DNA from: a virus
IMG/VR virus record: IMGVR_UViG_3300044971_004534
Length of the DNA: 64,000 bases
Reading direction: 5' to 3' (one strand)
In this document: piece by piece, positions 1 through 38,184 of the stretch
How positions within the stretch are numbered: the first letter of the stretch is position 1
Layout: every line of letters starts with the position of its first letter
Notes under the pieces: generated by a model
The model's input: only the letters and a program-made list of their open reading frames with translations
What the model was told of the DNA's origin: nothing
Databases searched by the model: none
Position numbers and translations under genes: made by a program

Positions 1-2740
1 CACTGGTGTCTCAGTACACCAAGGTGCTGGTGCCTTTAATAGTACTCTTTCAGTGACAGGAGCTGCTACATTTGTTGATGATATAGCAGTAAACGGTGGA
101 GACATTACAAGTACTGCTACTACTTTTAATTTACTTAATTCTACAGTTACTGGTCTTAATCTAGGTGGCGCTGCTAACACGATTATTCTGGGTGGCACAG
201 GTGGTACTGCTACAATAAGAAATGCTGGTACAAATATCAACGGCACTCTCACCGTAACTGGCGTCTCAGTGCATCAAGGTGCTGGTGCCTTTAATAGTAC
301 TCTCACTGTAACTGGTGTAACGACATTACAAGGTGCATCAACATTGCAGGGTGCTGTGAACATGAACAGTACTCTCACTGTCACTGGTGTCTCAGTACAC
401 CAAGGTGCTGGTGCCTTTAATAGTACTCTTTCAGTGACAGGAGCTGCTACGTTTGTTGATGACATAGCTGTGAACGGTGGAGACATTACTTCTACGGCCA
501 CTACTTTTAATCTTTTGAATACTACTGTTACTGGTCTTAATATTGGTGGTGGTGCTAATACAGTCAATATAGGATCTACAACAGCTGTTATTAATCTTGG
601 TACTGGAACAACTGGTGCTACAGTTAACGTTAGAGGCAATCTTGTTGTTGATGGCTCAACCACTACAGTAAATTCCACTACTGTTACCATTGATGATTTG
701 AATATCGTTCTTGCAGATGGACAGACTACCACGAGTGCAGTAAATGGAGCTGGAATAACTCTTGGTTCTACTGGTATTAATTGGCAATATAATACAACTG
801 GAAACAACTGGGAATCAACTGAAAACATAAGTATTGCATCTGGTAAAACTTATAAAATTGCCAATACTTCAGTTCTATCTAATACAACTTTAGGTTCTAC
901 GATCACTTCGTCATCTTTGATTCAGGTCGGAACTATAGGAATTGGTACTTGGCAAGGTACTTCAATAAAATCAGACTACGGTGGGACTGGAATTACTTCC
1001 TATACTGCTGGAGATATGGTTTATTATGCTGCTGGAACTGCATTGACTAAGCTTGCTATTGGGTCAGCAAATCATGTTTTGACAGCAACCACATCAGCTC
1101 CAGTTTGGACTGCAAATAGCGGAACTGGCAGTGTCGTAAGGCAAGATTCTCCAACTTTAAATAGCGCCACTTTAACTAATCCTGTATTCACAAATATTAC
1201 AGGAACTTCTCTAACTCTAACTGGAGATCTTTATGTTAATGGCGGAGATATTGAGACCACAGCAACTACTTTTAATTTTATTACCAATACTTCATCTATA
1301 ATAAATATTGGAACTACATCTGGAAGTACAATTTCTATAGGAAGTGCAAGCGGCACTACTACAATTCGTAATGCTGGTACAAACATTAACGGTACTCTTA
1401 CTGTTACAGGTGTCTCAGTGCATCAAGGTGCCGGTTCGTTTAATAGTACTCTTACCGTAACCGGCGTCACCACATTGCAAGGTGCTTCTACGCTTCAGGG
1501 TGCAGTAAATGCTAACAGTACTCTCACTGTTACTGGTATCACAACACTTCAGGGTGCATCGACATTGCAGGGTGCTGTGAACATGAACAGTACTCTCACT
1601 GTCACTGGTGTCTCAGTACACCAAGGTGCTGGTGCCTTTAATAGTACTCTTTCAGTGACAGGAGCTGCTACATTTGTTGATGATATAGCAGTAAACGGTG
1701 GAGACATTACAAGTACTGCTACTACATTTAATTTATTAAATGCTACAGTTACAAATGCAAATGTGCTTGGTGCTGCAAATATTGTAGTTATAGGTGGAAC
1801 AGGCGGAACCTCTACTATAAGAAACGCTGGTACTAACATAAACGGAACTCTCACTGTGACAGGCGCTACAGTTATACAGGGTGCTTTGTCTGCCAATAGC
1901 ACTCTTACAGTAACTGGCGTTTCTACATTCCAAAGCGCTATTCTCGCAAATGGAGGTACAATTACTTCTAGTTCTACCACATTTAATTTATTAAACACTA
2001 CAGTTACAAATGCAAATGTGCTTGGCGCTGCTAATGTCATTGTTATGGGCGCAGCTGCTACTGGAACTGCTCATATTAGAAATAGTAACATTACACTGGG
2101 TAGTGCATCTGCCACTACCATGAGAACAGTTACTGGTTCTACTAACAATCTTTCAATTATTCCAAATGGTAATTTTGTAGTTACTCCTACAAGTAGTGTA
2201 GCAGGCTCTGGCACTACTGGATCTCTTACAATACAAAATGGAGGTCAAGGCGGCGCTACTTCTATCAGTGGAGCACCGCTTTTGCTTGGCGATTATACTG
2301 ATTCTGGTGGTAGTCCTCAGCCTGGTGAAATCAGAATTCTCGAATCAGGTGGTTCTAATTATACTGGATTTAAAGCTCAGGCAATGACTGCAGATTTGGT
2401 GTATACTCTTCCTTCCGCATTCCCTGCATCTAATGGACATGTACTTCAATCTACAACTGCTGGAGTTTTGTCATGGTCTGCTGCAGCATCATCTGCGTCT
2501 GTTGGCGTTACTGCAACAAGTGCAAGCTCAAGCTATAATCTTGTATTTACTGATGCATCTGCAACAAGTACATCTGCAACTTTGTTTATAGATGGTGGTA
2601 CAAACATACAGTATAATCCAAATACTGATTTGTTGACTCTTGCTGGAGACCTTGCTGTAAATGGTGGAGACATTACTTCTACAGCTACAACGTTCAATTT
2701 ACTCAATGCTACAGTAACTGGTCTCAATATGGGTGGAGCA
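1..2740. repeat. in-frame degenerate coding repeats of fibre gene 1, including perfect long copies
   Basis: Checked by eye: nt 1-123 are identical to 1603-1725, and nt 341-450 are identical to 1562-1671. Other copies (e.g. 382-450) are identical over shorter runs and then diverge at single positions. Confidence 0.9.
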
Positions 2741-3142
2741 GCAGCAACTATTAATATAGGAGCTTCTGGAGGAGACGTTACGGTTGCAGGTAATTTTTAC
2801 GCAGTTAAAAAGTCATTCTTGATTGACCATCCTTCTAAGAAAAACATGAAATTAGAATATGCATGTTTGGAAGGCCCAGAGAATGGAGTGTATATACGTG
2901 GAAGACTAGAAGGCAGTAAAGAAATAATTCTTCCATATTACTGGAAAGATCTTGTACATGAAGATTCTATTACTGTGCAATTGACTCCTATTGGAAGCTC
3001 TGACTCTCACTATGTTGTAAAATTTAATAATAAGAAAATAAAAATCAATAGTGATTCTGGAAATGTTCGTTGCTTCTATCTGGTGCAGGCTGAACGTAAG
3101 GATGTACCAAAAATTGAGGTGGAAAGAAAAATAGTAAAATAG
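2..3142 (+). CDS. giant repeat-containing tail fibre/adhesin-like protein (5'-truncated by window edge)
   Basis: The frame is open from nt 2 (TGVSVHQGAGAFNSTLSVTG..., i.e. mid-repeat) and stops at 3140-3142. The protein is T/G/N/S/V-rich. It has at least 6 copies of the cassette containing NGGDITSTATTFNLLN. It also carries a GEIRILESGGSNYTGFKA...LPSAFPASNGHVLQSTTAGVLSWS module and a distinct non-repeat C-terminal domain. The layout is typical of beta-helical phage fibres. Confidence 0.85.
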   Translation, partial: TGVSVHQGAGAFNSTLSVTGAATFVDDIAVNGGDITSTATTFNLLNSTVTGLNLGGAANTIILGGTGGTATIRNAGTNINGTLTVTGVSVHQGAGAFNSTLTVTGVTTLQGASTLQGAVNMNSTLTVTGVSVHQGAGAFNSTLSVTGAATFVDDIAVNGGDITSTATTFNLLNTTVTGLNIGGGANTVNIGSTTAVINLGTGTTGATVNVRGNLVVDGSTTTVNSTTVTIDDLNIVLADGQTTTSAVNGAGITLGSTGINWQYNTTGNNWESTENISIASGKTYKIANTSVLSNTTLGSTITSSSLIQVGTIGIGTWQGTSIKSDYGGTGITSYTAGDMVYYAAGTALTKLAIGSANHVLTATTSAPVWTANSGTGSVVRQDSPTLNSATLTNPVFTNITGTSLTLTGDLYVNGGDIETTATTFNFITNTSSIINIGTTSGSTISIGSASGTTTIRNAGTNINGTLTVTGVSVHQGAGSFNSTLTVTGVTTLQGASTLQGAVNANSTLTVTGITTLQGASTLQGAVNMNSTLTVTGVSVHQGAGAFNSTLSVTGAATFVDDIAVNGGDITSTATTFNLLNATVTNANVLGAANIVVIGGTGGTSTIRNAGTNINGTLTVTGATVIQGALSANSTLTVTGVSTFQSAILANGGTITSSSTTFNLLNTTVTNANVLGAANVIVMGAAATGTAHIRNSNITLGSASATTMRTVTGSTNNLSIIPNGNFVVTPTSSVAGSGTTGSLTIQNGGQGGATSISGAPLLLGDYTDSGGSPQPGEIRILESGGSNYTGFKAQAMTADLVYTLPSAFPASNGHVLQSTTAGVLSWSAAASSASVGVTATSASSSYNLVFTDASATSTSATLFIDGGTNIQYNPNTDLLTLAGDLAVNGGDITSTATTFNLLNATVTGLNMGGAAATINIGASGGDVTVAGNFYAVKKSFLIDHPSKKNMKLEYACLEGPENGVYIRGRLEGSKEIILPYYWKDLVHEDSITVQLTPIGSSDSHYVVKFNNKKIKINSDSGNVRCFYLVQAERKDVPKIEVERKIVK

Positions 3143-3178: not shown

Positions 3179-3874
3179 ATGGCTACTTTGTACAATCCCG
3201 GAATAGTAACTGATGGTTTAGTGATTTATTTTGATGCAGCAAACGTCAAAAGTTATTCTGTTGGAGGTACAAAATGGAATGATTTAACTGGAAATTTAAG
3301 AAACGCTACACTTGTTAATAGTCCTACTTTTAGTTCTACCAATGGTGGTGCATTTGATTTTGATGGAGTAGACGATCATGCGACTATAGATGCTTTTACT
3401 TACACCCCATATTGTTTAGACTTTTGGGTGTATAATAATTCTCAAATAAATGCCAATAATGGTAGCGTTGGTGGTCCTTCAACTTATCAAAGTTTGTTTA
3501 GAAATCTTTCTGGTTTAGGTTTAAATTTGGGTGGATGGGATGGAGTTATGACTAATGAGACTTTACACATTTTAAGTGGAGGAAAATATACCTATTTAAA
3601 TATAACTATTCCAGCTGGTTATCATAATTGGGTTTATAATTGGAATGGATCTAATTATGACATATGGGTTGATGGTGTCAAAAAAAATGCTATTGCATCC
3701 ACTTCCGGTCATGCAACGCTTAATTCTCAAAGTAGTACAAATTATATTTCATTTAATGCTGGTACGTATTATTTTTATGGCAAAATATTTGCAATAAAAA
3801 TTTATGGTTCTCAAATTAATGATGAACAAGTTATTAAAAATTTTAACGCTCTCAGAGGAAGGTTCGGTATCTAA
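3179..3874 (+). CDS. concanavalin A-like lectin/LamG-domain protein, paralogue 1
   Basis: N-terminus LYNPGIVTDGLVIYFDAANVKSY...WNDLTGN, then FDFDGVDDHATI, and C-terminus KIYGSQINDEQVIKNFNALRGRFGI. This is the hallmark layout of LamG (Laminin_G_3-type) phage proteins. Confidence 0.8.
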   Translation: MATLYNPGIVTDGLVIYFDAANVKSYSVGGTKWNDLTGNLRNATLVNSPTFSSTNGGAFDFDGVDDHATIDAFTYTPYCLDFWVYNNSQINANNGSVGGPSTYQSLFRNLSGLGLNLGGWDGVMTNETLHILSGGKYTYLNITIPAGYHNWVYNWNGSNYDIWVDGVKKNAIASTSGHATLNSQSSTNYISFNAGTYYFYGKIFAIKIYGSQINDEQVIKNFNALRGRFGI

Positions 3875-4545
3875 TGGCGCTTTCCCACTCACCTTCAATT
3901 GTTACTGAAGGTTTGATTTTGTGTTTAGATGCAGCAAACTTAAAAAGTTATCCTGGTACTGGCACTAATTGGTCTAATCTGACTGGATCTACTTCTGGAA
4001 CTTTGATAAACGGCGTTGGTTTTAGCAGTTCTAATGGAGGATTATTGACGTTTGATGGTACGAATGATTATGTAAATGTTCCGGGTTTATTTGACTTTTC
4101 TACAACCAATCAGCTAACTGTTTCTATATGGTGTAAATCTAATACTGCTCTATGGGATGATGTTGGTCAGTTAGTCTCAAAAAGAGATCAATTTATAATT
4201 CATCCAAGTTTAAATTCAAAAGATGTTATTTACTATGTCAGAGTTTCTACTCCGGCCTGGGCTCAACAAACAGTTGTTCCTAATTCTATAACTGTTTTTA
4301 ATAATTATGCCATGACTTACAATAGTGGAGACTTTAGGATATTTTTAAATGGATCTCAGTCAGGTCAACAATCTGTAGTGTCTACACTAAATTCTGATAC
4401 TGGAGATACTACTATTGGTAAAGATGATGGATTAGAGCGCTATCTAAACGGAGATGTTTCTAATGTTTTTATATACAACAGAGCTTTGTCTCCACAAGAA
4501 ATTTTACAAAATTTTAACGCTCTTCGTGGAAGGTTTGGTTTATAA
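3874..4545 (+). CDS. concanavalin A-like lectin/LamG-domain protein, paralogue 2
   Basis: TAATG overlap with the upstream gene. Motifs: SIVTEGLILCLDAANLKSYPGTGTNWSNLTG, LTFDGTNDYVNVP, FIYNRALSPQEILQNFNALRGRFGL. Confidence 0.85.
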   Translation: MALSHSPSIVTEGLILCLDAANLKSYPGTGTNWSNLTGSTSGTLINGVGFSSSNGGLLTFDGTNDYVNVPGLFDFSTTNQLTVSIWCKSNTALWDDVGQLVSKRDQFIIHPSLNSKDVIYYVRVSTPAWAQQTVVPNSITVFNNYAMTYNSGDFRIFLNGSQSGQQSVVSTLNSDTGDTTIGKDDGLERYLNGDVSNVFIYNRALSPQEILQNFNALRGRFGL

Positions 4546-5165
4546 TGGGAGTTCATTCTGGTCCCAACATAGTTCGCTCAAACTTAGCTATGTCTTTAGA
4601 CTCTAGAAATAGAAAGTCATTTTCTGGAGATACTTTTTACAATTTAATAGATTTGCAAAACTTGGGGAATCCATCTTGGTCTAATGGAGCTACTGCATTA
4701 ACAGTGATTGTAATCATAAGAATTATTGGATCTAATACGCAATATGCGTACCATCCCGTAAATAAATGGAATAGTGGAACTAATGACGCAAGTTTTGTAT
4801 TTTATCACTTTCAAAATTATTTAGGCACAGCTCCACAGAATGAAAATCTTCTAGGTTGGTACGCTAATGCAGGAGGTGTGTGGCAGGGAATTAGCGGTCA
4901 ATTTAAGGCAAGTCAAAACACAACATACTTTGTTGCTTTGCAGTACAGTTCTTCGTTAGGTGGTCAATTGTGGATAAATAGATCTAAAGTCGGAGTAAGG
5001 ACTGGCAGTGGTACTTTGGGGTCTGGTAGCAGCAATATATTAATAGATGGTAATGTTCTTGGAAGAAGTAATATACATAAGGTGGAAATGGTAAAATTTT
5101 ATAATAAAGACTTATCTGATAGTGAAATTACAAACATGTATGATTTACTAAAAAATCGATTATGA
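4545..5165 (+). CDS. divergent LamG-like protein, paralogue 3
   Basis: TAATG overlap with the upstream gene. Same architecture but diverged: NIVRSNLAMSLDSRNRKSF...WSNG...LWINRSKVG...VKFYNKDLSDSEITNMYDLLKNRL. Confidence 0.65.
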   Translation: MGVHSGPNIVRSNLAMSLDSRNRKSFSGDTFYNLIDLQNLGNPSWSNGATALTVIVIIRIIGSNTQYAYHPVNKWNSGTNDASFVFYHFQNYLGTAPQNENLLGWYANAGGVWQGISGQFKASQNTTYFVALQYSSSLGGQLWINRSKVGVRTGSGTLGSGSSNILIDGNVLGRSNIHKVEMVKFYNKDLSDSEITNMYDLLKNRL

Positions 5166-5596: not shown

Positions 5597-8500
5597 ATGG
5601 CAGACTCTGATAAAAATATCTCTATTATACCCAACAGGAGCCTTACTGGGCAGCCTCAGATCATATTCACTGGTCAGGGTAATGATCCTATTACTTTAAA
5701 AGTTTTAGACAGTACAATAGGATCATTGTCTTTTGAAGGTTCTGCTGGTCAGTTGTTGTCTATCACTGATTCTTTAAGCTCCGGTTCTATATTTAGTGTA
5801 AACGACATATCTGGTATTCCAAGCATAGATGTCAACGCTGACGGCACTGTTGCTCTTGCCCCTTATTCTGGAAATGTTGCCGTTGGTGTTACAAGCGCCT
5901 CTTATAAGTTGCATGTAAACGGAACTTTTTATGCAAATTCAGCTGCAACTTTTAATGGAAACATTATTTTAAGTAATGGAAATATTCAAACAACTACATC
6001 CATTTTTAATTTTGTTACAAATACTGCTTCTACTATCAATATAGGAACGACTTCTGGAAGTTCTGTTAATATTGCATCTACTACGGGTTCTACCACCATA
6101 AACAACTCGGCAATTGTTACTGGCAATATGACAGTTAATGGCGGCACTGTAACCAGTGCTGCTACTACGTTTAATCTTCTCAACACCACGGTTACCAATG
6201 CAAACGTTCTTGGAAGTGCTGACACAGTAGTGATTGGCTCAGCAAATGGCACCACTACGATAAGAAATGCTGGCACTAGAGTGAATGGAACTCTCACCGT
6301 TACTGGCGCTTCTACACTACAGGGTGCAGTAAATGCCAACAGCACTCTTACAGTCACTGGTGCAACCACATTGCAAGGTGCATCGACATTGCAGGGTGCT
6401 GTGAACATGAACAGTACTCTCACTGTGACCGGTGTCTCAGTGCATCAAGGTGCTGGTGCCTTTAACAGTACACTTTCGGTCACAGGTGCAGCAACATTTG
6501 TTGACGACATTGCAGTAAACGGTGGAGACATTACTTCTACTGCAACTACATTTAATTTATTAAATGCTACAGTTACAGGTCTTAATATTGGCGGTGGTGC
6601 TAACACTGTCTTGTTAGGTGGCACAGGTGGGACTACTACAATAAGAAATGCTGGCACTAACATTAATGGCACTCTTACCGTTACTGGTGTCACAACTCTT
6701 CAGGGCGCTTCTACGCTACAGGGTGCTGTAAATGCTAATAGTACTCTTACTGTAACCGGTGCAACAGTTTTACAAGGTGCTGTATCTCTTAATAATAATC
6801 TAACTGTTACCGGTGCTACAACTCTACAGGGTACTTTAGGTGTACTTGGAAACACTATTTCTAGTGCTTCTACTACTTTTAACTTACTTAATACTACCGT
6901 TACAAATGCTAACGTACTAGGTGCAGCAGACACAGTTGTGTTAGGCTCCGCTGGTGGCTCTACTACGATACGTAATGCTAGTACTAGAGTCAATGGAACT
7001 CTTACTGTTACAGGTGTCTCAGTGCATCAGGGTGCTGGTGCCTTTAACAGTACACTTTCGGTCACAGGTGCAGCAACATTTGTTGACGACATTGCAGTAA
7101 ACGGTGGAGACATTACAAGCACCGCAACTACGTTTAATCTTCTTAATTCAACAGTTACTGGTCTAAACATAGGTGGTGCTGCTAATACTGTAAATATAGG
7201 ATCTTCGTCTGCAATTATCAATCTTGGTACTGGAACAACTGGATCTACGGTTAACGTCAAGGGTAATCTTGTGGTTGATGGCGCAACTACCACAGTCAAT
7301 TCTACTACTGTCACAATAGACGATTTGAACATAGTTCTTGCGGATGGACAGACAACAACAAGTGCAGTAAATGGTGCTGGTATAACTCTTGGCTCTACCG
7401 GTATTAGTTGGCAATATAACACAACTGGAAATAACTGGGAGTCAACGGAAAATATTAGTATTGCATCCGGCGATACCTATAAAGTTGCTAACGTAACAGT
7501 GCTATCAGCTACTGCGCTTGGTTCAACAGTTACTGATTCTGCTTTAACTAGAGTAAATAGCTCTAATCTTACTCTAACTGGAGATTTAGAAGTAGCAGGT
7601 GGAGACATTACAAGTACTGCTACTACTTTCAATTTGCTTAACGCTACGGTTACAGGTCTCAATATAGGTGGCGCTGCTAATACTATAGTTCTAGGTGGTA
7701 CAGGCGGAGCTGCTACAATTCGTAATGCTGGTACAAATATCAACGGTACTCTTACTGTTACTGGCGTCTCAGTGCATCAAGGTGCTGGTGTATTTAATAG
7801 CACTCTCACTGTCACTGGTGTTTCTACGCTACAAGGTGCATCGACACTGCAGGGTGCAGTAAATGCCAACAGCACTCTGACTGTCACTGGTTCCACAACG
7901 CTACAGGGTGCTTCTACGCTCCAGGGTGCAGTAAATGCCAACAACACTCTTACGGTTACCGGTGTAACAACATTACAAGGTGCATCGACATTGCAGGGTG
8001 CAGTGAACATGAACAATACTCTTACTGTTACAGGTGTTTCAGTACATCAAGGCGCTGGACACTTTAATAGTACACTTTCAGTAACTGGCACTTCTTCTCT
8101 TATTGGAAATGTTACCGCAAGTGGAGATATTGCAGTCAATGGTGGAGACATTACTTCTACTGCTACTACATTTAATCTTCTGAATTCTACAGTTACGAAT
8201 GCAAATGTGCTTGGTGCTGCTAATACTATTTTGCTTGGTGGTACAGGTGGTAAAACTACTATTAGAAACGCATCAACTGCAGTTCATGGATCTTTTACTG
8301 TGAGTGGTGTTGCTAGCATTTTTGGTGGTGAATTAGGTATTGGAAGTACAGCGTCTTCTTATGCTAGCATATACATACCAGAGCAGATTTATCCTAATGG
8401 TTTTAGAATTCATGATACTGCAAATGACTCCAGTTCTTTGGCAATCGGTTTTTATCAAGATGTTGGTCCATTCCCATCGTCTGGATACATGACTATAGGC

Positions 8501-11488
8501 AACAGTTATTTTGGTTCTTATGATGTATTTCCCTTAAGTACACCTGCTTGGCCAGGCGATCCTGACATAGATGCAAATTTGACTTTAAATATTGGATTAG
8601 GAGGTACGGGTGCTGCTACCAATACTGGCTTTAGTGTTATAAAGACAATAAACATTGGAGGTAGTACTGGTACAGGAAATACTACTCTTATTAATATTGG
8701 ATCAGCAACTGGAACTTCGAATAATTTAACGGTAGTTCATGGAAATATGACTACTACTGGAAGTGTTGTAACTAGAAATTTGACAGTCCTTGGCGGCACT
8801 GTGACCAGTACTGCTACTACGTTTAATCTTCTCAATACCACTGTTACCAATGCAAACGTTCTCGGCGCTGCTAATACTATAGTTCTGGGTGGCACAGGTG
8901 GGACTGCTACAATTCGTAATGCTGGTACAAATATCAACGGTACTCTTACCGTTACAGGCGTCTCAGTGCATCAGGGTGCTGGAGTATTTAATAGCACTCT
9001 TACTGTTACAGGTGTAACAACATTACAAGGTGCTTCTACATTACAGGGTGCTGTAAACATGAACAGTACTTTGAACGTGACAAGTAGCGCTACTTTCTTA
9101 AGTATGACTGCAAAAGAAAATGCCAGCAATACGCGAATTTCAGCTAGTGTAAATAGTATACAGGGTTATTTTTCAAGTGAATCTAATCCAAGATTTGAAA
9201 TAAATCGCGACATGCTTTCTAGTGGTCAGGCTGGTATCGGTTTCAACGATACATCTGGAACAATTGCTGCATCCGGTGGAGCTATTGGAGTACCAATTAC
9301 TAGAGTGCTTGGATTATATACTAGCAACGGTTCATCTTTGGTGCAAAGAATGGCTATTGATCCAAATGGTGCAGTTAATATGCATGGCACTCTCACCGTC
9401 ACGGGTGCCTCAGTGCATCAGGGTGCTGGACACTTTAATAGCACACTTTCTGTAACTGGTACTTCTGCACTTATTGGAGACGTTACCGCAAGTGGAGACA
9501 TTGCTGTAAATGGTGGAGACATTACTTCTACTGCTACTACATTTAATCTTCTGAATTCTACAGTTACTGGTCTTAACATAGGTGGCGCATCTAATACGGT
9601 CATTCTGGGTGGCACAGGTGGCTCTGCAACTATAAGAAATGCTACAACTGCAATAAATGGCATTCTTACCGTAACTGGGGCTTCTACTTTTACTGGTGTG
9701 CTTAGTGCAACAACAATCACTTCTACGGATCTGTTATTAAGAACAGTTGGTGGAGACGAAGGCGGTCAACTTGAGCTGGGAACAGCTGCGACAAACTCTA
9801 CCCTGACTGGTGGCGCTGTTGTAATTGACGTATATCAAAATAAAGTTCGTTTCTTTGAAAAAGGAGCAGCATCTAGAGGATATTATATTGACATATCAGG
9901 TGGCGCAGCTGGCGCTGGTACAAATCTTGTGGGCGGCGGTGGTGGCACTCCAGGTGGCTCTACAACTCAAGTTCAATACAATAATGGTGGTGCATTTGCT
10001 GGCTCTGGAAACTTTACTTTTGATGGTTCAGGTATTAATGTAAATGGATTAATTTCCTCTGGACTTGGCATAACTACCACAGCGACTACTTTTAATTTTA
10101 TCACGAATACGGCATCAACTATAAATATAGGCACAACTTCTGGTAGTACTATTTCTATAGGAAGTGCAAGCGGTACCACTACAATTCGTAATGCTGGTAC
10201 AAATATTAATGGCACTTTTACTGTTACCGGTGTTTCTACTTTGCAAGGTGCTTCTACGCTACAGGGTGCTGTAAACATGAACAGTACTCTTACTGTCACA
10301 GGTGTCTCAGTCCATCAGGGTGCTGGACACTTTAATAGCACTTTAACTGTGAGCGGAGCTACGCAAATAGTATCTTCTGCTACTGGTACTGCCCCGTTTA
10401 CTATAACAGCGCCCTCTTTAGTTGATGGTGTTGGTGCATTAAGAATAAATGGATCGGAACCAGACATAAATCTTAATGATACTGATGGTGGATTTAATAC
10501 AATCACATTTGAAAATAACAGTAATGCTAGGGCGGCAATTGGAAGAGATTCTAATAATGCTTTTTATGTTGCCGTAAGAGATCCTTCTGTTGCTGGTGGT
10601 ACATGGAAGGGTGATGTGATTGTAGCAAATTCTTCTACTGGCAATGTTAATTTAGGATACAATTTAACTGTTACAGGTGCTACGGTTCTACAGGGTGCTG
10701 TAAGCATGAACAGTGCCCTTACTGTCACAGGTGGTACAGCTCTTATAGGAGGTATTTCTGGTAATTTAGGTGTTCAAGGAAATATATCATTGGGTACTGG
10801 CACTATTTCTAGCAGCTCTTCTACTATCGCTAATATTTTTAATTCAACTGTTACTAGTATATCTATAGGTGATGCTGCTAATGTTATAAACATAGGTTCT
10901 ACAAATGCAAATATTAATCTTGGTGGTGGTATCGTTGGCGCAACGGTAACTATGAATGGCGATTTAGTACAGAATGGTGATTCTGTAAGTTTATTTGGCG
11001 GTAACATGAGCGGACTTTTTACAAATACCAAGTCTGGAGTATTTACAGTTTTTACTGTATCTACTGGAGACTTATTTGCTATTGAGCCAGATCCTGCATC
11101 GTTAGGTCTTGAATTCGTTTTTGGTGGTGTCAGCAATACTTTTATAGGAGACTACAGTGCTCAGGGGAATAGCACTTATATTAAAGTAGATGATCAGAAT
11201 AACGTCATCAATTTTAATGCTCCGATTGGTTCAAATTTCGGCACTGTTATTACGAGTAACGATCACTTTGGAGTAAACTTACAAAAAGAAATCAGATTTT
11301 ATGATTTAGATAGCAGCAATTACGTAGGGTTTAAGTCTCCAGCAACAGTCACTGCAAATAATATATGGATATTGCCAGCTCAAGACGGCGCTGCTGGTCA
11401 ATTGTTAACAACTGACGGAGCCGATAACTTAACGTGGACAACGCCGCCTGCGTTAGATTTATTCTTATTCTCACAAGGTATTATTTAA
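5597..11488 (+). CDS. giant repeat-containing tail fibre/adhesin-like protein (1963 aa)
   Basis: Starts 1 nt after the upstream stop. The N-terminus is fibre-type: ISIIPNRSLTGQPQIIFTGQGNDPITLKV...LSFEGSAGQLLSITDSL...FSVNDISGIPSIDVNADGTV. It has about 11 copies of the same cassette as fibre 1, separated by unique inserts. C-terminal module: EIRFYDLDSSNYVGFKSPATVTANNIWILPAQDGAAGQLLTTDGADNLTW. Confidence 0.88.
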   Translation: MADSDKNISIIPNRSLTGQPQIIFTGQGNDPITLKVLDSTIGSLSFEGSAGQLLSITDSLSSGSIFSVNDISGIPSIDVNADGTVALAPYSGNVAVGVTSASYKLHVNGTFYANSAATFNGNIILSNGNIQTTTSIFNFVTNTASTINIGTTSGSSVNIASTTGSTTINNSAIVTGNMTVNGGTVTSAATTFNLLNTTVTNANVLGSADTVVIGSANGTTTIRNAGTRVNGTLTVTGASTLQGAVNANSTLTVTGATTLQGASTLQGAVNMNSTLTVTGVSVHQGAGAFNSTLSVTGAATFVDDIAVNGGDITSTATTFNLLNATVTGLNIGGGANTVLLGGTGGTTTIRNAGTNINGTLTVTGVTTLQGASTLQGAVNANSTLTVTGATVLQGAVSLNNNLTVTGATTLQGTLGVLGNTISSASTTFNLLNTTVTNANVLGAADTVVLGSAGGSTTIRNASTRVNGTLTVTGVSVHQGAGAFNSTLSVTGAATFVDDIAVNGGDITSTATTFNLLNSTVTGLNIGGAANTVNIGSSSAIINLGTGTTGSTVNVKGNLVVDGATTTVNSTTVTIDDLNIVLADGQTTTSAVNGAGITLGSTGISWQYNTTGNNWESTENISIASGDTYKVANVTVLSATALGSTVTDSALTRVNSSNLTLTGDLEVAGGDITSTATTFNLLNATVTGLNIGGAANTIVLGGTGGAATIRNAGTNINGTLTVTGVSVHQGAGVFNSTLTVTGVSTLQGASTLQGAVNANSTLTVTGSTTLQGASTLQGAVNANNTLTVTGVTTLQGASTLQGAVNMNNTLTVTGVSVHQGAGHFNSTLSVTGTSSLIGNVTASGDIAVNGGDITSTATTFNLLNSTVTNANVLGAANTILLGGTGGKTTIRNASTAVHGSFTVSGVASIFGGELGIGSTASSYASIYIPEQIYPNGFRIHDTANDSSSLAIGFYQDVGPFPSSGYMTIGNSYFGSYDVFPLSTPAWPGDPDIDANLTLNIGLGGTGAATNTGFSVIKTINIGGSTGTGNTTLINIGSATGTSNNLTVVHGNMTTTGSVVTRNLTVLGGTVTSTATTFNLLNTTVTNANVLGAANTIVLGGTGGTATIRNAGTNINGTLTVTGVSVHQGAGVFNSTLTVTGVTTLQGASTLQGAVNMNSTLNVTSSATFLSMTAKENASNTRISASVNSIQGYFSSESNPRFEINRDMLSSGQAGIGFNDTSGTIAASGGAIGVPITRVLGLYTSNGSSLVQRMAIDPNGAVNMHGTLTVTGASVHQGAGHFNSTLSVTGTSALIGDVTASGDIAVNGGDITSTATTFNLLNSTVTGLNIGGASNTVILGGTGGSATIRNATTAINGILTVTGASTFTGVLSATTITSTDLLLRTVGGDEGGQLELGTAATNSTLTGGAVVIDVYQNKVRFFEKGAASRGYYIDISGGAAGAGTNLVGGGGGTPGGSTTQVQYNNGGAFAGSGNFTFDGSGINVNGLISSGLGITTTATTFNFITNTASTINIGTTSGSTISIGSASGTTTIRNAGTNINGTFTVTGVSTLQGASTLQGAVNMNSTLTVTGVSVHQGAGHFNSTLTVSGATQIVSSATGTAPFTITAPSLVDGVGALRINGSEPDINLNDTDGGFNTITFENNSNARAAIGRDSNNAFYVAVRDPSVAGGTWKGDVIVANSSTGNVNLGYNLTVTGATVLQGAVSMNSALTVTGGTALIGGISGNLGVQGNISLGTGTISSSSSTIANIFNSTVTSISIGDAANVINIGSTNANINLGGGIVGATVTMNGDLVQNGDSVSLFGGNMSGLFTNTKSGVFTVFTVSTGDLFAIEPDPASLGLEFVFGGVSNTFIGDYSAQGNSTYIKVDDQNNVINFNAPIGSNFGTVITSNDHFGVNLQKEIRFYDLDSSNYVGFKSPATVTANNIWILPAQDGAAGQLLTTDGADNLTWTTPPALDLFLFSQGII
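5990..10350. repeat. in-frame degenerate coding repeats of fibre gene 2
   Basis: The motif ...TLTVTG(V/A)(S/T)xLQGA...VSVHQGAG(A/H/V)FNSTL(S/T)VTG...AVNGGDITSTATTFNLLN... recurs throughout. Nt 6449-6534 are identical to 7031-7116 (86 nt, checked by eye). Confidence 0.9.
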
Positions 11489-11503
11489 TAGGAGGTTATA
11501 TTT

Positions 11504-11887
11504 ATGGCAACTACTGCACAATACACAGCACAGCCACTAGTAGAATGTACTACTACTGTTAGTGCTGGTTCTACAACAATTTCAACTGCCTTGTCTACAA
11601 CTGCTGCTGCAGGTGTCGGTAAGCGTATTTTAAGAGTTTATTCCACAATTACTGGAACAAACACGGCTGGCAAATTAGGCTTGTATATTACTGCTAGCTC
11701 AAACGATTTTTTAATTGCAGAAAGAGCCGTTGCCGCAAATACTGTTAGCGCAACCGCTGCCGCTCTTCGTGTTGAATTCCCAGAAGCTGTTGGTTTAGTT
11801 TTACCAGGAGGTAGCACAACATCATTAAAATTAGTGAACGGCGTAAACGTCACTGTGAATAATGTTGTTGAGAGTGGACTTCTATGA
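11504..11887 (+). CDS. hypothetical Ala/Thr-rich protein (127 aa)
   Basis: Strong SD (TAGGAGG) 8 nt upstream of the ATG. ATGA overlap with the downstream glycine-rich gene. No motif recognised. Confidence 0.75.
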   Translation: MATTAQYTAQPLVECTTTVSAGSTTISTALSTTAAAGVGKRILRVYSTITGTNTAGKLGLYITASSNDFLIAERAVAANTVSATAAALRVEFPEAVGLVLPGGSTTSLKLVNGVNVTVNNVVESGLL

Positions 11888-12780
11888 ATCATGGATTTTA
11901 TGGATTTCCAAGTAAATTAAATTTATCAGAAAATCAAATTGAACAATTTGATTCCAGCGGTGCTTACCAAATATTGCCTGGAACAAAAAAGCTGTACATT
12001 TTTGCTGTCGGCGGCGGCGGTGGTGGTGGAGGTGGTGCTAGGCAATCTGGTAACGCGTATGGCGGCGGTGGTGGAGGAGGAGGAGTCATAGTTTTAAAAG
12101 AATTTTATGTTTCTGATTTAGGAGGTCCTGGTCAAACTCTCTTTATCACCATAGGTGCTGGAGGAAATGCTGGCATTGCTGCCACAGGAGACTCGTCTAA
12201 CGGAGGGAACGGCGGTGCTGGTGGCGCAACTTCGATCAGTATTGCAGGAAAACCTGGTATTTTAATTTATTGTCCTGGTGGAAATCTTGGTTCTGGTGGA
12301 ACTGGTGCTGCAGGCACTGCTGGTTCTGGACAAGCATGTTTTATTGATAATTATAGCGTTACTGGTGGCGCTGGCGGAAGCTCTGGTGGTGGAGTAACTG
12401 TAATCGCAGTATATAGTCATGGAGGTGCTGGTGGTGGTTTTAAAATAGGATCTGGTTTTACTGGAGGAGCTATTACATTACAAACTACGACAGTTTCAGG
12501 CATTATGTCATCTTTAACTGCTAGAGCTAGTAATATTTATGCTGGTGGAACTGCAGATTCTGCAACAAAACCTTTTGATTCGTATCAGCATATTCTAGGT
12601 ATTATGTCTCCTGGATTTGGTGGTCCAGGAGGTGGGGCTGGTACTGTTGCTTCAAATGCTGGTGGCAATGGCTTCCGTGGTAGTGGCGGTGGCGGTGGCG
12701 GTGGTTCTCAAAATGGTGTTGCAGCAAGTGCTGGTGGTCGTGGTGGTGATGGTTATGTTGCTATATTAGCGATATATTAA
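11884..12780 (+). CDS. glycine-rich protein, paralogue 1 (candidate polyglycine-II adhesin)
   Basis: About one third Gly. Conserved N-terminus MNHGFYGFP...FDSSGAYQILPG..LYIFAVGGGGGGGGG and C-terminus GGNGFRGSGGGGGGG...GGRGGDGYVAILAIY. The layout resembles the Pfam Gly_rich family and gp38-type adhesins. Confidence 0.8.
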   Translation: MNHGFYGFPSKLNLSENQIEQFDSSGAYQILPGTKKLYIFAVGGGGGGGGGARQSGNAYGGGGGGGGVIVLKEFYVSDLGGPGQTLFITIGAGGNAGIAATGDSSNGGNGGAGGATSISIAGKPGILIYCPGGNLGSGGTGAAGTAGSGQACFIDNYSVTGGAGGSSGGGVTVIAVYSHGGAGGGFKIGSGFTGGAITLQTTTVSGIMSSLTARASNIYAGGTADSATKPFDSYQHILGIMSPGFGGPGGGAGTVASNAGGNGFRGSGGGGGGGSQNGVAASAGGRGGDGYVAILAIY

Positions 12781-12794
12781 TATGGAGGTTTATT

Positions 12795-12980
12795 ATGAGA
12801 TGGGCAATTATTAATTTAGAAAATAACATAGTAGAAAATGTAATAATTTGGGATGGAAATGGTCAAATATATCCTTTTGACGCTGCTCAATTGATTCAAC
12901 TGCAAGAAGATGAGCGATGTGAAATGGGTTCTCTTTATGATCCGAATTCTTCTCCAAGATTTATAGAACAACAGGTATGA
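12795..12980 (+). CDS. small hypothetical protein (61 aa)
   Basis: SD GGAGG 7 nt upstream. ATGA overlap with the next glycine-rich gene. Confidence 0.65.
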   Translation: MRWAIINLENNIVENVIIWDGNGQIYPFDAAQLIQLQEDERCEMGSLYDPNSSPRFIEQQV

Positions 12981-13915
12981 ATCAAGGTTTTTTTAGTACA
13001 TTCCCTGCAAACACTTTGCAAAATATTCAGTTGCAAGATGTAGCGCTTTTTGACTCCAGTGGTGCTTATCTAATTCGGCCAGGAGTCAGGATGCTTTTTA
13101 TTTACTTAGTTGGCGGTGGCGGTGGCGGTGGCGGTGGCGGTCGTTATGCTTCTGGAACAACTGCTTTTGGCGGCGGCGGCGGTGGTGCTGGGGCTGGCAT
13201 GTATGCTTATTTTTTGACCGAAGATTTGGGTGGCCCAAATACTCTTTTGTATATCACTATTGGTGCTGGAGGCACAAGCGGTGCAACTGCTACTGGTGAC
13301 GGAACTGCCGGAGGTAACGGAGGCAGTGGTAATCCTACGTCTATTACGATAAATGGATGGCCAGGAACTTTAATGTCTGCTCTTGGCGGCGGTGGTGGTT
13401 TTGGTGGTGCTACTGGTGGTGGTGCGGCTGGTGGAACAACTCCAAATTCTTTTTATGGGTGGTTGCAACCAGTTTCAAATCCTGGTGCTGGTGGAGGCTC
13501 AACTGGCAATGGAGCTAGCGTTACTGCTGGTAGTATACTCAGCGGCCATGCGGGAGCTGGTGGTGGAGGCAAGAATGGAGCTGGCACCATATACAGTGGT
13601 GGTTCTATAGTTAATCCTGGCGCTACGACTGGCGGCTTTGCTAACCCAAATTTTGCTCGTGCTTCAAATATACTTGCAGGAGGAGGAACTGGTACTGCTG
13701 GTGCAACAAACTTGCAATATCATTTGTCTGGTGTTTTCAGTGGAGGATTGGGTGGCGCAGGTGGTGGTGGAGCAACTGCAGCAGCGGGCGGTGCAGGTGG
13801 CAATGGCTTTCGCGGCGGTGGCGGTGGTGGCGGTGGTGGGTGTCAAAACGGTTTTTCTTCTGGTATTGGAGGTCGTGGCGGGAATGGCTACGTTGCAATT
13901 TGGGCGATAAGGTGA
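12977..13915 (+). CDS. glycine-rich protein, paralogue 2
   Basis: MNQGFFSTFP...FDSSGAYLIRPG..LFIYLVGGGGGGGGGGR...GGNGFRGGGGGGGGG...GGRGGNGYVAIWAIR. Collinear with paralogues 1 and 3. Confidence 0.8.
   Translation: MNQGFFSTFPANTLQNIQLQDVALFDSSGAYLIRPGVRMLFIYLVGGGGGGGGGGRYASGTTAFGGGGGGAGAGMYAYFLTEDLGGPNTLLYITIGAGGTSGATATGDGTAGGNGGSGNPTSITINGWPGTLMSALGGGGGFGGATGGGAAGGTTPNSFYGWLQPVSNPGAGGGSTGNGASVTAGSILSGHAGAGGGGKNGAGTIYSGGSIVNPGATTGGFANPNFARASNILAGGGTGTAGATNLQYHLSGVFSGGLGGAGGGGATAAAGGAGGNGFRGGGGGGGGGCQNGFSSGIGGRGGNGYVAIWAIR
13112..13141. repeat. perfect (GGCGGT)x5 hexanucleotide tract encoding poly-Gly
   Basis: Read directly from the sequence. Similar imperfect GGY tracts occur near 12008-12045, 12677-12705, 13812-13840, 14046-14070 and 14803-14830. 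Confidence 0.9.
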
Positions 13916-13918
13916 TTT

Positions 13919-14902
13919 ATGAATAATGGATTTTTTAGTTTTCCTGGAATAGTTGATACTCGTTTCATTGAAGCTGTTCAGTTTGATACAACTGGAATAT
14001 ATTATATTCCGGCAAAAGCGCGGACTCTTTTAATATATGCTATTGGTGGCGGTGGCGGTGGTGGTGGTGGATTTCGTGGTGCTTCTCTTGGAAATGCTGC
14101 TGGCGGCGGTGGTGGCAGTGGTGGGAGCTGGACTTTGTATAGATTATTTTTAGATGAATTTAGAAATTTTTCAGGCAACAATGCTTCTAGTGCATATAGT
14201 TTTTCAGCTTTGCAAATAGCTATTGGTGCAGGTGGTGGTGGAGGAAACGGCTCCGCGTCTGACGGTGGTGCGGCAACAGCTGGTTCAACGGGTGGTACTA
14301 CAACAGTTTCTTTTTTATCTTCTCGTGGAAATATAGTTTTTGTAATTGGGGGGCTTGGTGGTGGCGCAGGCACTGCTACTGCTCCAGCTGGTGGTGCAGC
14401 TAGAATAGCAGCAACGTGGGGATATCATACCGTAAGTGCAATGGGCGGCGTTGGAGGATCTGGGGCTACTTCTAAGCCCTCCAACGTATCTGTTGGTCAT
14501 CCTCAACAAACTCAAATTTTATGGAATGGCGGTGGGGGTGGTGGTGGATTTATAAATTCTAGCGGATTAGCTGCTGCGGGAGCTGATATTACTTTGTACA
14601 ACGCAGCAGTATTTACTACTTTTGGAACTCCTGGACTCGCTAGATCTACAACAATTGCTACTGGAGGGACAAATGCTGGAGTGGCTGGTCAAAATGCTCC
14701 ATTTTTTAACATTTGTGGTAAGCTTTCTCCTGGCTTTGGCGGCGCAGGAGGTGGAGGGGCCGCACTTGGTAGTGCTTCAAATGGAGGTAGAGGTTATCGT
14801 GGCGGTGGCGGTGGTGGAGGAGGCGGTTCAAAGTCTGGAGTTACTGCTGGAAATGGAGCTACAGGCGGCAACGGTTATGTATGCATTGTAGCTTTTGAAT
14901 AA
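13919..14902 (+). CDS. glycine-rich protein, paralogue 3
   Basis: MNNGFFSFPG...FDTTGIYYIPA..LLIYAIGGGGGGGGG...GGRGYRGGGGGGGGG...GGNGYVCIVAFE. Confidence 0.8.
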   Translation: MNNGFFSFPGIVDTRFIEAVQFDTTGIYYIPAKARTLLIYAIGGGGGGGGGFRGASLGNAAGGGGGSGGSWTLYRLFLDEFRNFSGNNASSAYSFSALQIAIGAGGGGGNGSASDGGAATAGSTGGTTTVSFLSSRGNIVFVIGGLGGGAGTATAPAGGAARIAATWGYHTVSAMGGVGGSGATSKPSNVSVGHPQQTQILWNGGGGGGGFINSSGLAAAGADITLYNAAVFTTFGTPGLARSTTIATGGTNAGVAGQNAPFFNICGKLSPGFGGAGGGGAALGSASNGGRGYRGGGGGGGGGSKSGVTAGNGATGGNGYVCIVAFE

Positions 14903-15468
14903 TGCTTAAAAAAAGTTTAAAAGATTTTTACCCTACATCTGAATCAAATGGCTATGGTCTTGAAAAGTCTTTTAAGCGTTTTAATTTTTTAAAAGGCATT
15001 GACTTTAACTCTGTTCTTGACGTTGGTTCTGGACCGTGTTTATTGCATCAATGGTTAATTAAGCACCAAAAAAATGTTGTGTATGAGGCAGTAGATATTA
15101 GAGAAGACTCTACAAAGTTGTGTAACTGTAAGACCTATACAAGCATCCCTCAAAATGGATTATATGAGCTAGTATGTTTGTTTGGAACTGTTACATTTAA
15201 TATCAACCATGATGAAAATGAAAATAAAAAAATATTAAAATTGCTTATTAGTGATTGCATTAACAAATCATCTAAATATGTAGTTTTGACCGTTTTCAAA
15301 GATTTATCAAAAAAAATATTTCCACACAGTATTAATAAGCTTCATGTACGTTTTTCTAAAGAAGAAATTTTTGAAATGTTTATACATGAAAAAATCAAAG
15401 AAGTCAAAATTCATGAAAGAGATGATTTAGATCGTGATGAATATTTTGTTATTGCTAAAGTTGATTAG
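14902..15468 (+). CDS. class I SAM-dependent methyltransferase-like protein
   Basis: TAATG overlap with the upstream gene. Motif I-like VLDVGSGPC, followed by an acidic beta-2 end (YEAVDIRED) and LVCLFGTV. Assignment is from motifs only. Confidence 0.5.
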   Translation: MLKKSLKDFYPTSESNGYGLEKSFKRFNFLKGIDFNSVLDVGSGPCLLHQWLIKHQKNVVYEAVDIREDSTKLCNCKTYTSIPQNGLYELVCLFGTVTFNINHDENENKKILKLLISDCINKSSKYVVLTVFKDLSKKIFPHSINKLHVRFSKEEIFEMFIHEKIKEVKIHERDDLDRDEYFVIAKVD

Positions 15469-36615: not shown

Positions 36616-38184
36616 ATGAATTGGTATAAAGTTGCTGACAAAATATCTAAATCTATTCAGTTAACTCCTGAAGAGCATGCTATATTTAATGTAATTAAGG
36701 CTGGCAGAGATGCATACGCTTCAGGTGTTCAATTGAGGATCGCTGGAGGATGGGTTAGGGACAGGTTGCTTGGCAAAGTATCTGACGACATAGATATCGC
36801 TGTTAGCGGAGGTGATGGCAACTCTGTGGCAGAAGCCGTTAGACGTTATGATATTGAACAAAATGCAGGCAAGCACACAAAAGATCCTTACGCAGTAAGT
36901 TTAGAAAAAACTCAACCGGGTGAAAAGAAAACAAGTGCTGGACTAAAAGTAGGCGCTATAGATATTAATGGAATTAAGGTAGAATTTGTGCCTATGCGCA
37001 CAGAGATTTATAATCCTACCAGTAGAGTTCCAGAAATATCTGCAACAAATGATCCTACAGAAGACGTAAAAAGAAGGGATTTAACAATTAATGCAATTTA
37101 TTATAATATTGATACTGGTAAAATCGAAGACTATGTAGGCGGGGTAAAAGATTTAGAAAATGGTATTTTAAGAACGCCAGTTGATCCTGTAGTAACTTTA
37201 AAAGAAGATCCGTTAAGAGCATTAAGGGCATTGCGTTTTTTATCTCAAATGTATGGCTTTGAGCTTGATGAACAGTTGGTTGAAGCATTGAAGCATCCAG
37301 AAGTTCATAAGTCTTATCTTGATAAAGTCGCTCCAGAGCGTGCAAGAAAAGAACTTGAAAAGCTAGTTCTTGGTAAGCGTCCTGCTGATGCTATAAGGCA
37401 TTTCTTTTCAAGTGGTCTGTATTTACCAGTCTTTCATCATAAAAAACTTTATGGATTTAAGCCTATTCATATGGATCAAAACAACCCTCATCATCAGTAT
37501 AATTTGCTTGAGCATACTGTTCATGTAGTAAAAAATTTAAATAATATGCTCATTGATGCTGGAGTTTCAGACAAAGAAAGAATGGTTGCTGTTATGGCAG
37601 CTATATTCCATGATTTTGGTAAAATGGACCCAAATATTGTGCGTCCAAGTAAAAGCAACCCTAATGCTTCTTCTTATCCAGGTCATGAGAATGTCTCTGC
37701 TGAACTTGCTGTAGAAATACTGAAGAGACTTGGTTTTGGAAATGAAAGAGAATTAATATCTAAAGTTGTTCAAGAACATATGCGTCCTCATGGAGAAATG
37801 CAAAGTCCAAAATCTATTGGTAAATTTTTACGAGATTTTGAGTCGATGAGTATTGGCGATGATTCCAAAACAAGATTGTGGTGGTTGACTTTTATGCATG
37901 CGATAGCAGATTCTATGAGTAAAGGTGGAGTTGATTATGATGAGGAAGTCAAGGGGAAGCATGATCAAATCAAGACAATCGAAAAGTTTATTGAAGAAAG
38001 ATCTAAGGTGGGCACTAAGCCGCTTTTGAATGGAAAAGAAATTATGGATTTGTTTCCTGATAAAAATCCTAAAACTGGATTTATAAATGTAATGCAAAAT
38101 GCTTTAGCTGAAGCTCAAGATAGTGGTGAAATAAAAGACAAGAATGAAGCAAAAAATTTCTTGCTAAAACAGTTTTCTCAATAA
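36616..38184 (+). CDS. cca: CCA-adding enzyme / tRNA nucleotidyltransferase (class II polymerase-beta head + HD domain)
   Basis: Motifs: RIAGGWVRDRLLGKVSDDIDIAV, RRDLTINAIYYN, DPLRALRALRF, and the HD motif IFHDFGK. Confidence 0.9.
   Translation: MNWYKVADKISKSIQLTPEEHAIFNVIKAGRDAYASGVQLRIAGGWVRDRLLGKVSDDIDIAVSGGDGNSVAEAVRRYDIEQNAGKHTKDPYAVSLEKTQPGEKKTSAGLKVGAIDINGIKVEFVPMRTEIYNPTSRVPEISATNDPTEDVKRRDLTINAIYYNIDTGKIEDYVGGVKDLENGILRTPVDPVVTLKEDPLRALRALRFLSQMYGFELDEQLVEALKHPEVHKSYLDKVAPERARKELEKLVLGKRPADAIRHFFSSGLYLPVFHHKKLYGFKPIHMDQNNPHHQYNLLEHTVHVVKNLNNMLIDAGVSDKERMVAVMAAIFHDFGKMDPNIVRPSKSNPNASSYPGHENVSAELAVEILKRLGFGNERELISKVVQEHMRPHGEMQSPKSIGKFLRDFESMSIGDDSKTRLWWLTFMHAIADSMSKGGVDYDEEVKGKHDQIKTIEKFIEERSKVGTKPLLNGKEIMDLFPDKNPKTGFINVMQNALAEAQDSGEIKDKNEAKNFLLKQFSQ

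Follow-up and report, generated by a model that had tools for sequence, protein, structure and literature searches.

The 64,000-nucleotide (nt) stretch of viral DNA analysed here (IMG/VR virus record IMGVR_UViG_3300044971_004534; the window in what follows) carries, at positions 11,504 to 14,902, a cassette of five genes directly behind a giant repeat fibre: J, for a predicted jelly-roll protein; G1, G2 and G3, for three paralogous glycine-rich proteins; and s, for a small protein, between G1 and G2 (Table 1). Here we report that a cassette with a fixed grammar, in which a fibre ending in L(F/Y)xxGII is followed by J, one to three G genes and s, recurs in many uncultured phages. We consider it probable that the cassette is the distal-tip module of the 1963-amino-acid (aa) fibre, supplying interchangeable receptor-binding tips that are plugged on through J. 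An earlier note, made from the letters of this DNA alone, had delimited the five open reading frames (ORFs) and described three collinear paralogues with shared termini; the ORF list, an alignment and comparison with shuffled sequences confirm its coordinates, the collinear paralogy and the common ends. The same holds for its description of the first gene as an Ala/Thr-rich ORF with a very strong Shine-Dalgarno sequence, since J contains 16.5% Thr and 15% Ala and AGGAGG lies 8 nt ahead of its start codon (Table 1).

The genes are closely packed. J starts 15 nt after the end of the fibre gene, the J/G1 and s/G2 junctions are 4-nt overlaps (ATGA), and the end of G3 shares 1 nt with the gene that follows. 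A scan for promoters and terminators returned fewer sites than shuffled sequences did, with no signal inside the cassette standing out, and on these grounds cassette and fibre may be read as one translationally coupled unit. Antisense ORFs in this part of the DNA mirror the GGN runs as poly-Pro and are not real features, and the strongly positive GC skew at 12-14 kb is a by-product of the same runs.

Table 1. Coordinates of the cassette genes, the fibre upstream and the proposed joining elements in the window
Feature	Position	Strand	Size or basis
Giant repeat fibre	5597..11488	+	1963 aa; C-terminus assigned to the module; PHROG matches to short tail fibre and virion structural protein
Fibre C-terminal tail LFLFSQGII, proposed docking tail	11459..11485	+	Tail pattern in related loci
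Shine-Dalgarno sequence AGGAGG of J	11490..11495	+	Sequence; 8 nt before the ATG at 11504
J, jelly-roll protein, proposed to link fibre tail and G proteins as an adaptor or knob	11504..11887	+	127 aa
G1, 'brush' protein (TNF-like plus polyglycine-rich), proposed tip for receptor binding	11884..12780	+	298 aa
G1 N-terminal peptide MNHGFYGFP, proposed docking plug	11884..11910	+	Motif also opens G2 (12977) and G3 (13919)
s, conserved small protein, candidate assembly factor	12795..12980	+	61 aa
G2, paralogue of G1	12977..13915	+	312 aa
G3, paralogue, older separate lineage	13919..14902	+	327 aa

The three G proteins align from end to end, with identities of 52% (G1/G2) and 40% (G1/G3) that fall to 19-33% among the three when Gly-Gly columns are left out. 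Glycine makes up 30.5%, 33.7% and 28.1% of G1, G2 and G3, and Smith-Waterman scores of the pairs stand far above those of 200 composition-preserving shuffles (z = 36.5, 25.9 and 20.5). Composition-adjusted BLASTP misses the similarity of G1 to G3 (E = 4.4), so routine searches easily overlook this family. The proteins open with MNxGF(F/Y) and close with GGxGYVxIxA. In the family alignment the most conserved blocks are residues 41-67 and 241-298, and the most variable, indel-rich stretch is at residues ~145-240.

G1 is a member of the Pfam family Gly_rich_2 (PF21722), scoring 47.5 bits (E 3e-12) against a gathering threshold of 24.3, with residues 27-294 aligned to profile positions 7-223 of 226. 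G2 (15.6 bits) and G3 (17.2 bits) fall under the threshold, yet both are full-length homologues of G1, and most metagenomic relatives of the family bear PF21722. All PHROG matches of the G proteins are in the tail category; among them G2 matches phrog_863, labelled 'tail fiber assembly', with an E-value of 3.8e-9 at profile positions 396-601 of 690. AlphaFold2, given an alignment of 68 family members, returned a confident model of G1 (predicted local distance difference test, pLDDT, 91; predicted template modelling score, pTM, 0.87) with 13 short strands, in which the glycine runs are placed confidently as neither helix nor strand and only the first ~15 residues are uncertain.

When this model was compared with the PDB by Foldseek, the best matches were chains of the Bxb1 tail tip (9d93 Qb, E 1e-9, and Qa, 2e-8; template modelling (TM) scores of 0.61-0.63 on the target), together with the Pam3 fibre (7ypx_A, E 2e-6) and about fifteen entries for the ALK/LTK glycine-rich domain (E about 2e-5); the Foldseek probability was about 1.0 for 9d93_Qb, 7ypx_A and 7ls0. 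A profile of the G family gave a single significant match among PDB sequences, the Bxb1 'Tail wing brush, gp33' (8e-5), and hhalign aligned G residues 14-118 with residues 76-170 of Pam3 gp24, past most of the N-terminal helical domain of that protein. Pam3 gp24 itself scores on Gly_rich_2, and tail fibres and mycobacteriophage minor tail proteins are among the 250 matches of G1 in BFVD. The model and these matches assign to G1 a predicted tumour necrosis factor (TNF)-like plus polyglycine-rich domain fold, that of Pam3 gp24, Bxb1 gp33 and the ALK glycine-rich domain (GRD). We conclude that G1, G2 and G3, of which G1 was modelled, are stand-alone TNF-like plus polyglycine 'brush' proteins, equivalent to the Pam3 gp24 fold minus its helical shaft.

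The polyglycine-type fold proposed in the earlier note is thus borne out by the G1 model, Foldseek and the family profile, whereas the two families it had named, the gp38 adhesins and Pfam Gly_rich, are not those to which the proteins belong. None of G1-G3 matched the GP38 families (PF05268 and PF21721) at E <= 1, while S16 gp38, the positive control, scored 4e-73 and 1e-19 on GP38 and Gp38_N; hhalign of the G family against S16 gp38 gave a probability of 1.3%, and the S16 gp38 structure 6F45 is absent among the 50 Foldseek matches listed for G1. Pfam Gly_rich (PF12810, the ALK/LTK type) likewise gave no match to G1-G3 at E <= 1, and the likeness is one of fold only. A phmmer search of PDB with G1 returned only antibody-linker artefacts. 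In 50,697 phage records, blastn of the cassette in a 'distant' mode found nothing, nor did tblastn of G1, a query that was probably masked by the low-complexity filter.

Relatives of the cassette were collected by fetching 65 further loci through the J family, and 75 loci and the window were scanned with hidden Markov models of G, J and s; architecture counts cover 43 distinct complete cassettes. Such a survey had been recommended at the outset for gain, loss or swapping of paralogues, and it recovered one to three G copies, a swapped block relative to the locus L002 and triplications confined to single lineages. The order of genes is fixed, with J first, then one to three G, and s behind the first or the last G. 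Most cassettes are J-G-s (27 of the 43); eight are J-G-G-G-s, five have the window's arrangement (J-G-s-G-G), two are J-G-G-s and one is J-G-s-G. Contrary to the impression that a triple set is unusual, three copies are common within the family (13/43 cassettes, against 3/43 with two), although a single copy is commonest. All 75 loci come from uncultured phages and metagenomes, and their surroundings vary: a 150-kb contig with T4-like replication genes encodes a 302-aa fibre and then proteins of 127, 322 (G), 59, 302 (G) and 318 (G) aa; a 165-kb contig (L004) has its cassette 4 kb upstream of a gene for a 908-aa protein, which shows no more than a faint match to DUF2345, a domain of VgrG-type spikes; and in a 70-kb relative J, G, G, G and s adjoin terminase. 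Other related contigs bear one G.

The gene upstream of J ends in L(F/Y)xxG(I/V)(I/V)-COOH in 69 of the 69 related loci containing that ORF, and in 50 of these the ending is GII. The upstream proteins range from 65 to 1963 aa, are otherwise unrelated between loci and stop 0-26 nt before J; in related loci they match tail-fibre PHROGs, 'long tail fiber distal subunit' included. The fibre-module setting described in the earlier note therefore stands on the tailed upstream gene and on these matches. Its link to the upstream fibres in the plural holds for one of them, for within the window the GII tail is found only on the 1963-aa fibre and is absent from the other giant ORFs. Part of the fibre repeat bears the PHROG label 'head and packaging: virion structural protein'. 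The repeat of the giant fibre (VNGGDITSTATTFNLLN...) is also found in an ORF at 53-3142 that may extend upstream of the window start and has a different C-terminal domain (phrog_28536/17490); possibly this is another fibre, bearing a tip of its own. A further giant ORF of 1923 aa (29220-34991), between the genes for portal and major head protein, is also without the GII tail, and has a GC content of 0.42-0.48 against about 0.35-0.39 in neighbouring segments upstream.

J is the most conserved gene of the module, with 73-74% identity between the window and L001 or L004, where G proteins share 44-52%, and 73-80% overall across more distant phages. Its position is always behind the GII-tailed gene and ahead of the first G. 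Its ends are nearly invariant, MATTAQYTAQP at the N-terminus, where model confidence is low, and ESGLL at the C-terminus. AlphaFold2 predicts a nine-strand jelly-roll (pLDDT 91.9), for which Foldseek found only generic jelly-rolls: VP2 of the birnavirus IBDV, the trimeric cement protein of KHP40 (TM 0.51), the turret of the archaeal virus HFTV1, and YPM. These structural matches are weak (E about 1e-3, TM about 0.5), and at sequence or profile level J matched nothing in Pfam, PHROG or the PDB. The J family comprises 895 representatives at 50% identity, mostly stand-alone proteins of 125-145 aa. Tandem J-J proteins of about 260-270 aa (for example P0283 and P0331) account for 16 of the top 150 J matches, and in P0368 a 175-aa N-terminal domain without assigned identity precedes J. 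In P0378, a distant member of 479 aa, the order J-Gly_rich_2-J is found in one chain (PF21722, 1.3e-23). Because J is fused to a G domain in this relative it looks structural; a single chain of this kind speaks for J and the brush domain acting together physically, with J as a structural component and not as a transient chaperone.

The small protein s matches phrog_18617, a family of unknown function (5e-7), and has 59 metagenomic homologues, all of about 60 aa. It was detected in 57 loci out of the 74 surveyed, which include the window, and most of the others end at a contig edge. A longer form of ~135 aa has an extra C-terminal domain (phrog_25252, also of unknown function); Pfam and PHROG scans of long s returned only families of unknown function, and profiles of s and long s matched PDB sequences only by chance (integrin, homing endonucleases). 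The suggestion that the small ORFs are chaperones found no support in this comparison. Neither J nor s could be identified as a chaperone of the Tfa type (Mu TfaMu, Pam3 gp25) at sequence or profile level: hhalign against Pam3 gp25 gave probabilities of 0.1% for long s and 0.2% for J, and the only chaperone hint, FluMu_N (E 0.098), scored 12.8 bits, below the cut-off of 25.8. For J, a conserved jelly-roll that is fused to G elsewhere, a chaperone role is unlikely.

The start of the G proteins is sharply conserved. Among 74 distinct proteins M1, N2 and G4 are invariant (100% each), F8 is found in 93% and P9 in 85%, which gives the pattern M N x G F/I/L F/Y G/S F P irrespective of position in the cassette; conservation of the peptide columns is 0.78, against 0.44 for other non-glycine columns. 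In the monomer model of G1 the peptide is unstructured (pLDDT 44 over the first 10 residues). The same start is found on unrelated bodies. Directly after J, L034 (7411-8073) and L049 (7426-8100) encode proteins of 220-224 aa that begin MNEGIYGFP or MNQGIFGLP, contain 10% glycine and are homologous to each other and unrelated to the G body. These two loci are without a glycine-rich gene, and a gene of ~110 aa follows in place of s; Pfam and PHROG scans of the 220-aa heads gave nothing usable. A short conserved peptide on interchangeable bodies looks like a docking element, and we infer that its docking site is J or the fibre tail.

Comparison with L002 separates the history of the G genes from that of their surroundings. 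Outside the region the contig L002 and the window represent one phage, and the proteins encoded by J, TerL and four neighbouring genes share 99-100% identity, with a synonymous divergence (dS) of 0.005-0.027. G1, G2 and G3 differ by 17, 17 and 24 residues (93-95% identical), with dS of 0.15-0.22 and a ratio of non-synonymous to synonymous divergence (dN/dS) of about 0.19; s is intermediate (dS 0.09). Synonymous divergence of the G1-s-G2-G3 block is roughly ten times that of the flanks. On the nucleotide identity profile the diverged block extends from about 11960, past the start of G1 that codes for the plug, to about 14960, at the G3 end. Upstream, identity is only 74% over the C-terminal 400 residues of the fibre, and the final ~130 nt of the fibre gene form with J an island of 99-100% identity, so that the tail is identical though the rest of the fibre end has diverged. 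Divergence in blocks beside near-identical flanks points to exchange by recombination, and the G1-s-G2-G3 block was replaced in this way and not altered by mutational wear. Recombinational exchange is known behaviour of host-range cassettes.

Over longer distances, neighbour-joining trees contain a first-position clade, which unites G proteins from the window, L001, L004 and L013, and a last-position clade, with those of the window (G3), L001, L004, L006, L028 and L029; G2 of the window falls nearer the first-position clade, and L031 and L067 contain lineage-specific G triplications. The gene that follows G3 in the window (14902-15468), to which it is translationally coupled, encodes a 188-aa protein with the motif VLDVGSGP and a weak FtsJ-like methyltransferase match (E 0.02); with an identity of 99.5% in L002, and only 56% in L010, this protein falls outside the exchanged block.

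Cultured phages are only distantly related to this one, with TerL about 25% identical at most. A search of 185,579 genomes returned a single 6.7-kb contig, from a metagenome-assembled genome of a lake Terrimicrobiaceae, a match too weak to name the host. Elsewhere in the window lie four paralogues of LamG/ConA-like type that end in NFNALRGRFG(I/L), three in tandem just upstream of the giant fibre (3179-3874, 3874-4545 and 4545-5165, plus strand) and one at 38188-39435 on the minus strand; they match Laminin_G_3 (2e-21 for 3874-4545) and phrog_24074/8510, 'virion structural protein', and the tandem triple is likely to be carbohydrate-binding. The portal protein (26457-28739; phrog_16240 at residues 69-469) has a C-terminal match to an HNH endonuclease (phrog_559, residues 614-726), and the gene at 36616-38184 encodes a tRNA nucleotidyltransferase of the CCA-adding type (phrog_2244, 1e-44), no tRNA gene having been found in the 64-kb window.

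Based on these observations, we propose that J sits on the C-terminal tail of the fibre and that the unstructured G peptide, MNxGF(F/Y)GFP, acts as a plug for which either J or the fibre tip is the socket. Without a helical shaft like that of Pam3 the G proteins must ride on another protein. The three paralogues would compete for docking sites or share them, giving up to three binding specificities per virion; since all three have a common plug, one shared type of site with several specificities is the simplest arrangement. Host contact would be made by the variable, indel-rich segments (G1 ~145-240 and outer loops) at the ends of a polyglycine bundle, the core of which would be formed by the conserved first and last glycine runs. 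The s gene accompanies the G genes, and its product probably aids folding or assembly of the G proteins, which is the weakest step of the proposal. The alternative tips envisaged in the earlier note fit the common docking peptide and the recombining G genes, and that reading is as a whole partly supported. A wider rule is also conceivable, though we lean slightly against it: a universal plug and socket, in which fibres of 65-1963 aa ending in L(F/Y)xxGII carry J, J takes any head that begins MNxGF(F/Y)GFP (usually one to three brushes, sometimes an unrelated domain), and sets of heads recombine between unrelated phages without re-engineering of the fibre.

Several observations weigh against the proposed tip module. 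TM-scores between G1 and ALK are low, about 0.25, and the polyglycine-II conformation is implied by glycine segments that are neither helix nor strand, together with the fold matches. Only weak PHROG matches place the upstream fibre in the tail, and it could be a head fibre. The cassette lies amid replication genes in L001 and L008/L009, and no cultured phage carries J or s, tblastn of two J variants and long s having found nothing in the 50,697 phage records.

The main alternative is that G1, G2 and G3 are distinct subunits of one tip, a heterotrimer of pseudo-threefold symmetry capping a trimeric fibre. The TNF-like plus glycine-rich part of Pam3 gp24 is trimeric (PMC9608196), heterotrimeric fibres are found in mycobacteriophage Mysterious (PMC13252515), and the first- and last-position clades are old and keep their position in several distant phages, which suggests non-redundant roles. 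The predominance of cassettes with a single G weakens this explanation, because these and the few with two show that three subunits are not required, and some triples (L031 and L067) are lineage-specific duplications. One docking peptide common to all paralogues fits a shared site better than three interfaces, and the G proteins are without the helical bundle that drives trimerisation of gp24 (PMC9608196). We therefore regard a heterotrimeric tip as rather unlikely.

If G, J or s, singly or together, were assembly chaperones of the giant fibre, absent from the finished virion as is phage T4 gp38, their genes would stand where phages usually keep fibre chaperones, directly downstream of the fibre; the 'tail fiber assembly' label of phrog_863 would be accounted for, and the two domains of long s would recall the modular build of Tfa proteins (PMC9608196). 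The phrog_863 match, however, falls inside a long protein and not in a small chaperone, the G fold is that of a receptor-binding brush domain, and by sequence profile s and J resemble neither Pam3 gp25 nor any other PDB chain. With J fused to G in one polypeptide elsewhere, and with rapid recombinational turnover of G beside an unchanged J, which is typical of specificity determinants, a set of chaperones is very improbable. Least probable in our view is that the cassette serves a fibre or decoration attached to the capsid, or encodes proteins that act at the surface of the host in the course of infection. In the window, fibre and cassette adjoin terminase and portal genes and not recognisable baseplate genes, the best compact structural matches of J are capsid cement and turret proteins, and the head-and-packaging label covers part of the fibre repeat. 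Those J matches are weak and of a generic jelly-roll kind (TM 0.5 or less), whereas all solved phage relatives of the G fold are tail components and the genes upstream of the cassette in related loci match tail-fibre families; the cassette of L004 also lies near the 908-aa gene, whose link to VgrG-type spikes is the faint DUF2345 match only.

Brush or polyglycine domains, an emerging class of receptor-binding domain, are established in phage receptor-binding proteins (PMC9608196; PMC13252515; doi 10.64898/2026.07.24.740622; PMC13243795), so far from a handful of cultured phages. The TNF-like/polyglycine domain is found at the distal, host-recognising end of the fibre (PMC9608196), and in Bxb1 the central fibre has polyglycine-rich domains associated with it (PMC13252515). 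The idea of receptor binding by polyglycine proteins is right and already known, and it is the arrangement of the module that appears to be new: here the brush domain is a free-standing protein with fixed partners and with joining peptides that are very short and sharply conserved. We found no published description of the fixed module in which GII tail, J and plug go with one to three heads and s, of its spread over 75 loci of uncultured phages and metagenomes, of a head swap behind a constant plug or of the J-G-J fusion, and a literature search on the Pfam name Gly_rich_2 found no paper. If the joining rules are true, they offer a simple signature for host-range genes in uncultured phage genomes, genes that composition-corrected BLAST and low-complexity filters now hide. 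They would also show how one fibre carries one to three specificities, and would provide a compact natural docking system usable for the re-targeting of fibres.

Among known systems, the gp37-gp38 pair of S16 and T2 (6F45) is functionally comparable, having a separate gene for a glycine-rich adhesin right after that of the distal fibre, with glycine motifs and variable segments alternating along the protein. There gp38 attaches to gp37 by N-terminal helices (PMC9608196); in contrast to the G proteins it is a three-layer sandwich on a beta-helix, not TNF-like (PMC9608196), encoded by a single gene and used with no jelly-roll adaptor. The ALK/LTK GRD (7LS0, 7NX0) combines a TNF-like sandwich with polyglycine helices, a likeness of fold and not of family membership, and belongs to eukaryotic receptor ectodomains that bind a cytokine, with no match to the G proteins at Pfam level. 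Bxb1 gp33 (PDB 9D93, chains Qa and Qb) is, like G, a separate protein of ~270 aa that is essentially a brush domain attached to tail-tip proteins. It comes from a siphovirus of an actinobacterial host, for which we could show no J or s partner, GII fibre or MNxGFFGFP peptide. Pam3 has in gp25 a Tfa-type chaperone, for which hhalign of J and long s detected no counterpart in the cassette. Pam3 gp24 (7YPX; PMC9608196) shares with the G proteins a TNF-like beta-sandwich interleaved with a polyglycine bundle, in which the first and last glycine runs are the longest and most conserved and variation is directed towards the distal loops (PMC9608196). Unlike them, gp24 has an N-terminal helical shaft of its own that docks on the baseplate and drives trimerisation, where a G protein has only its nine-residue peptide and a short linker.

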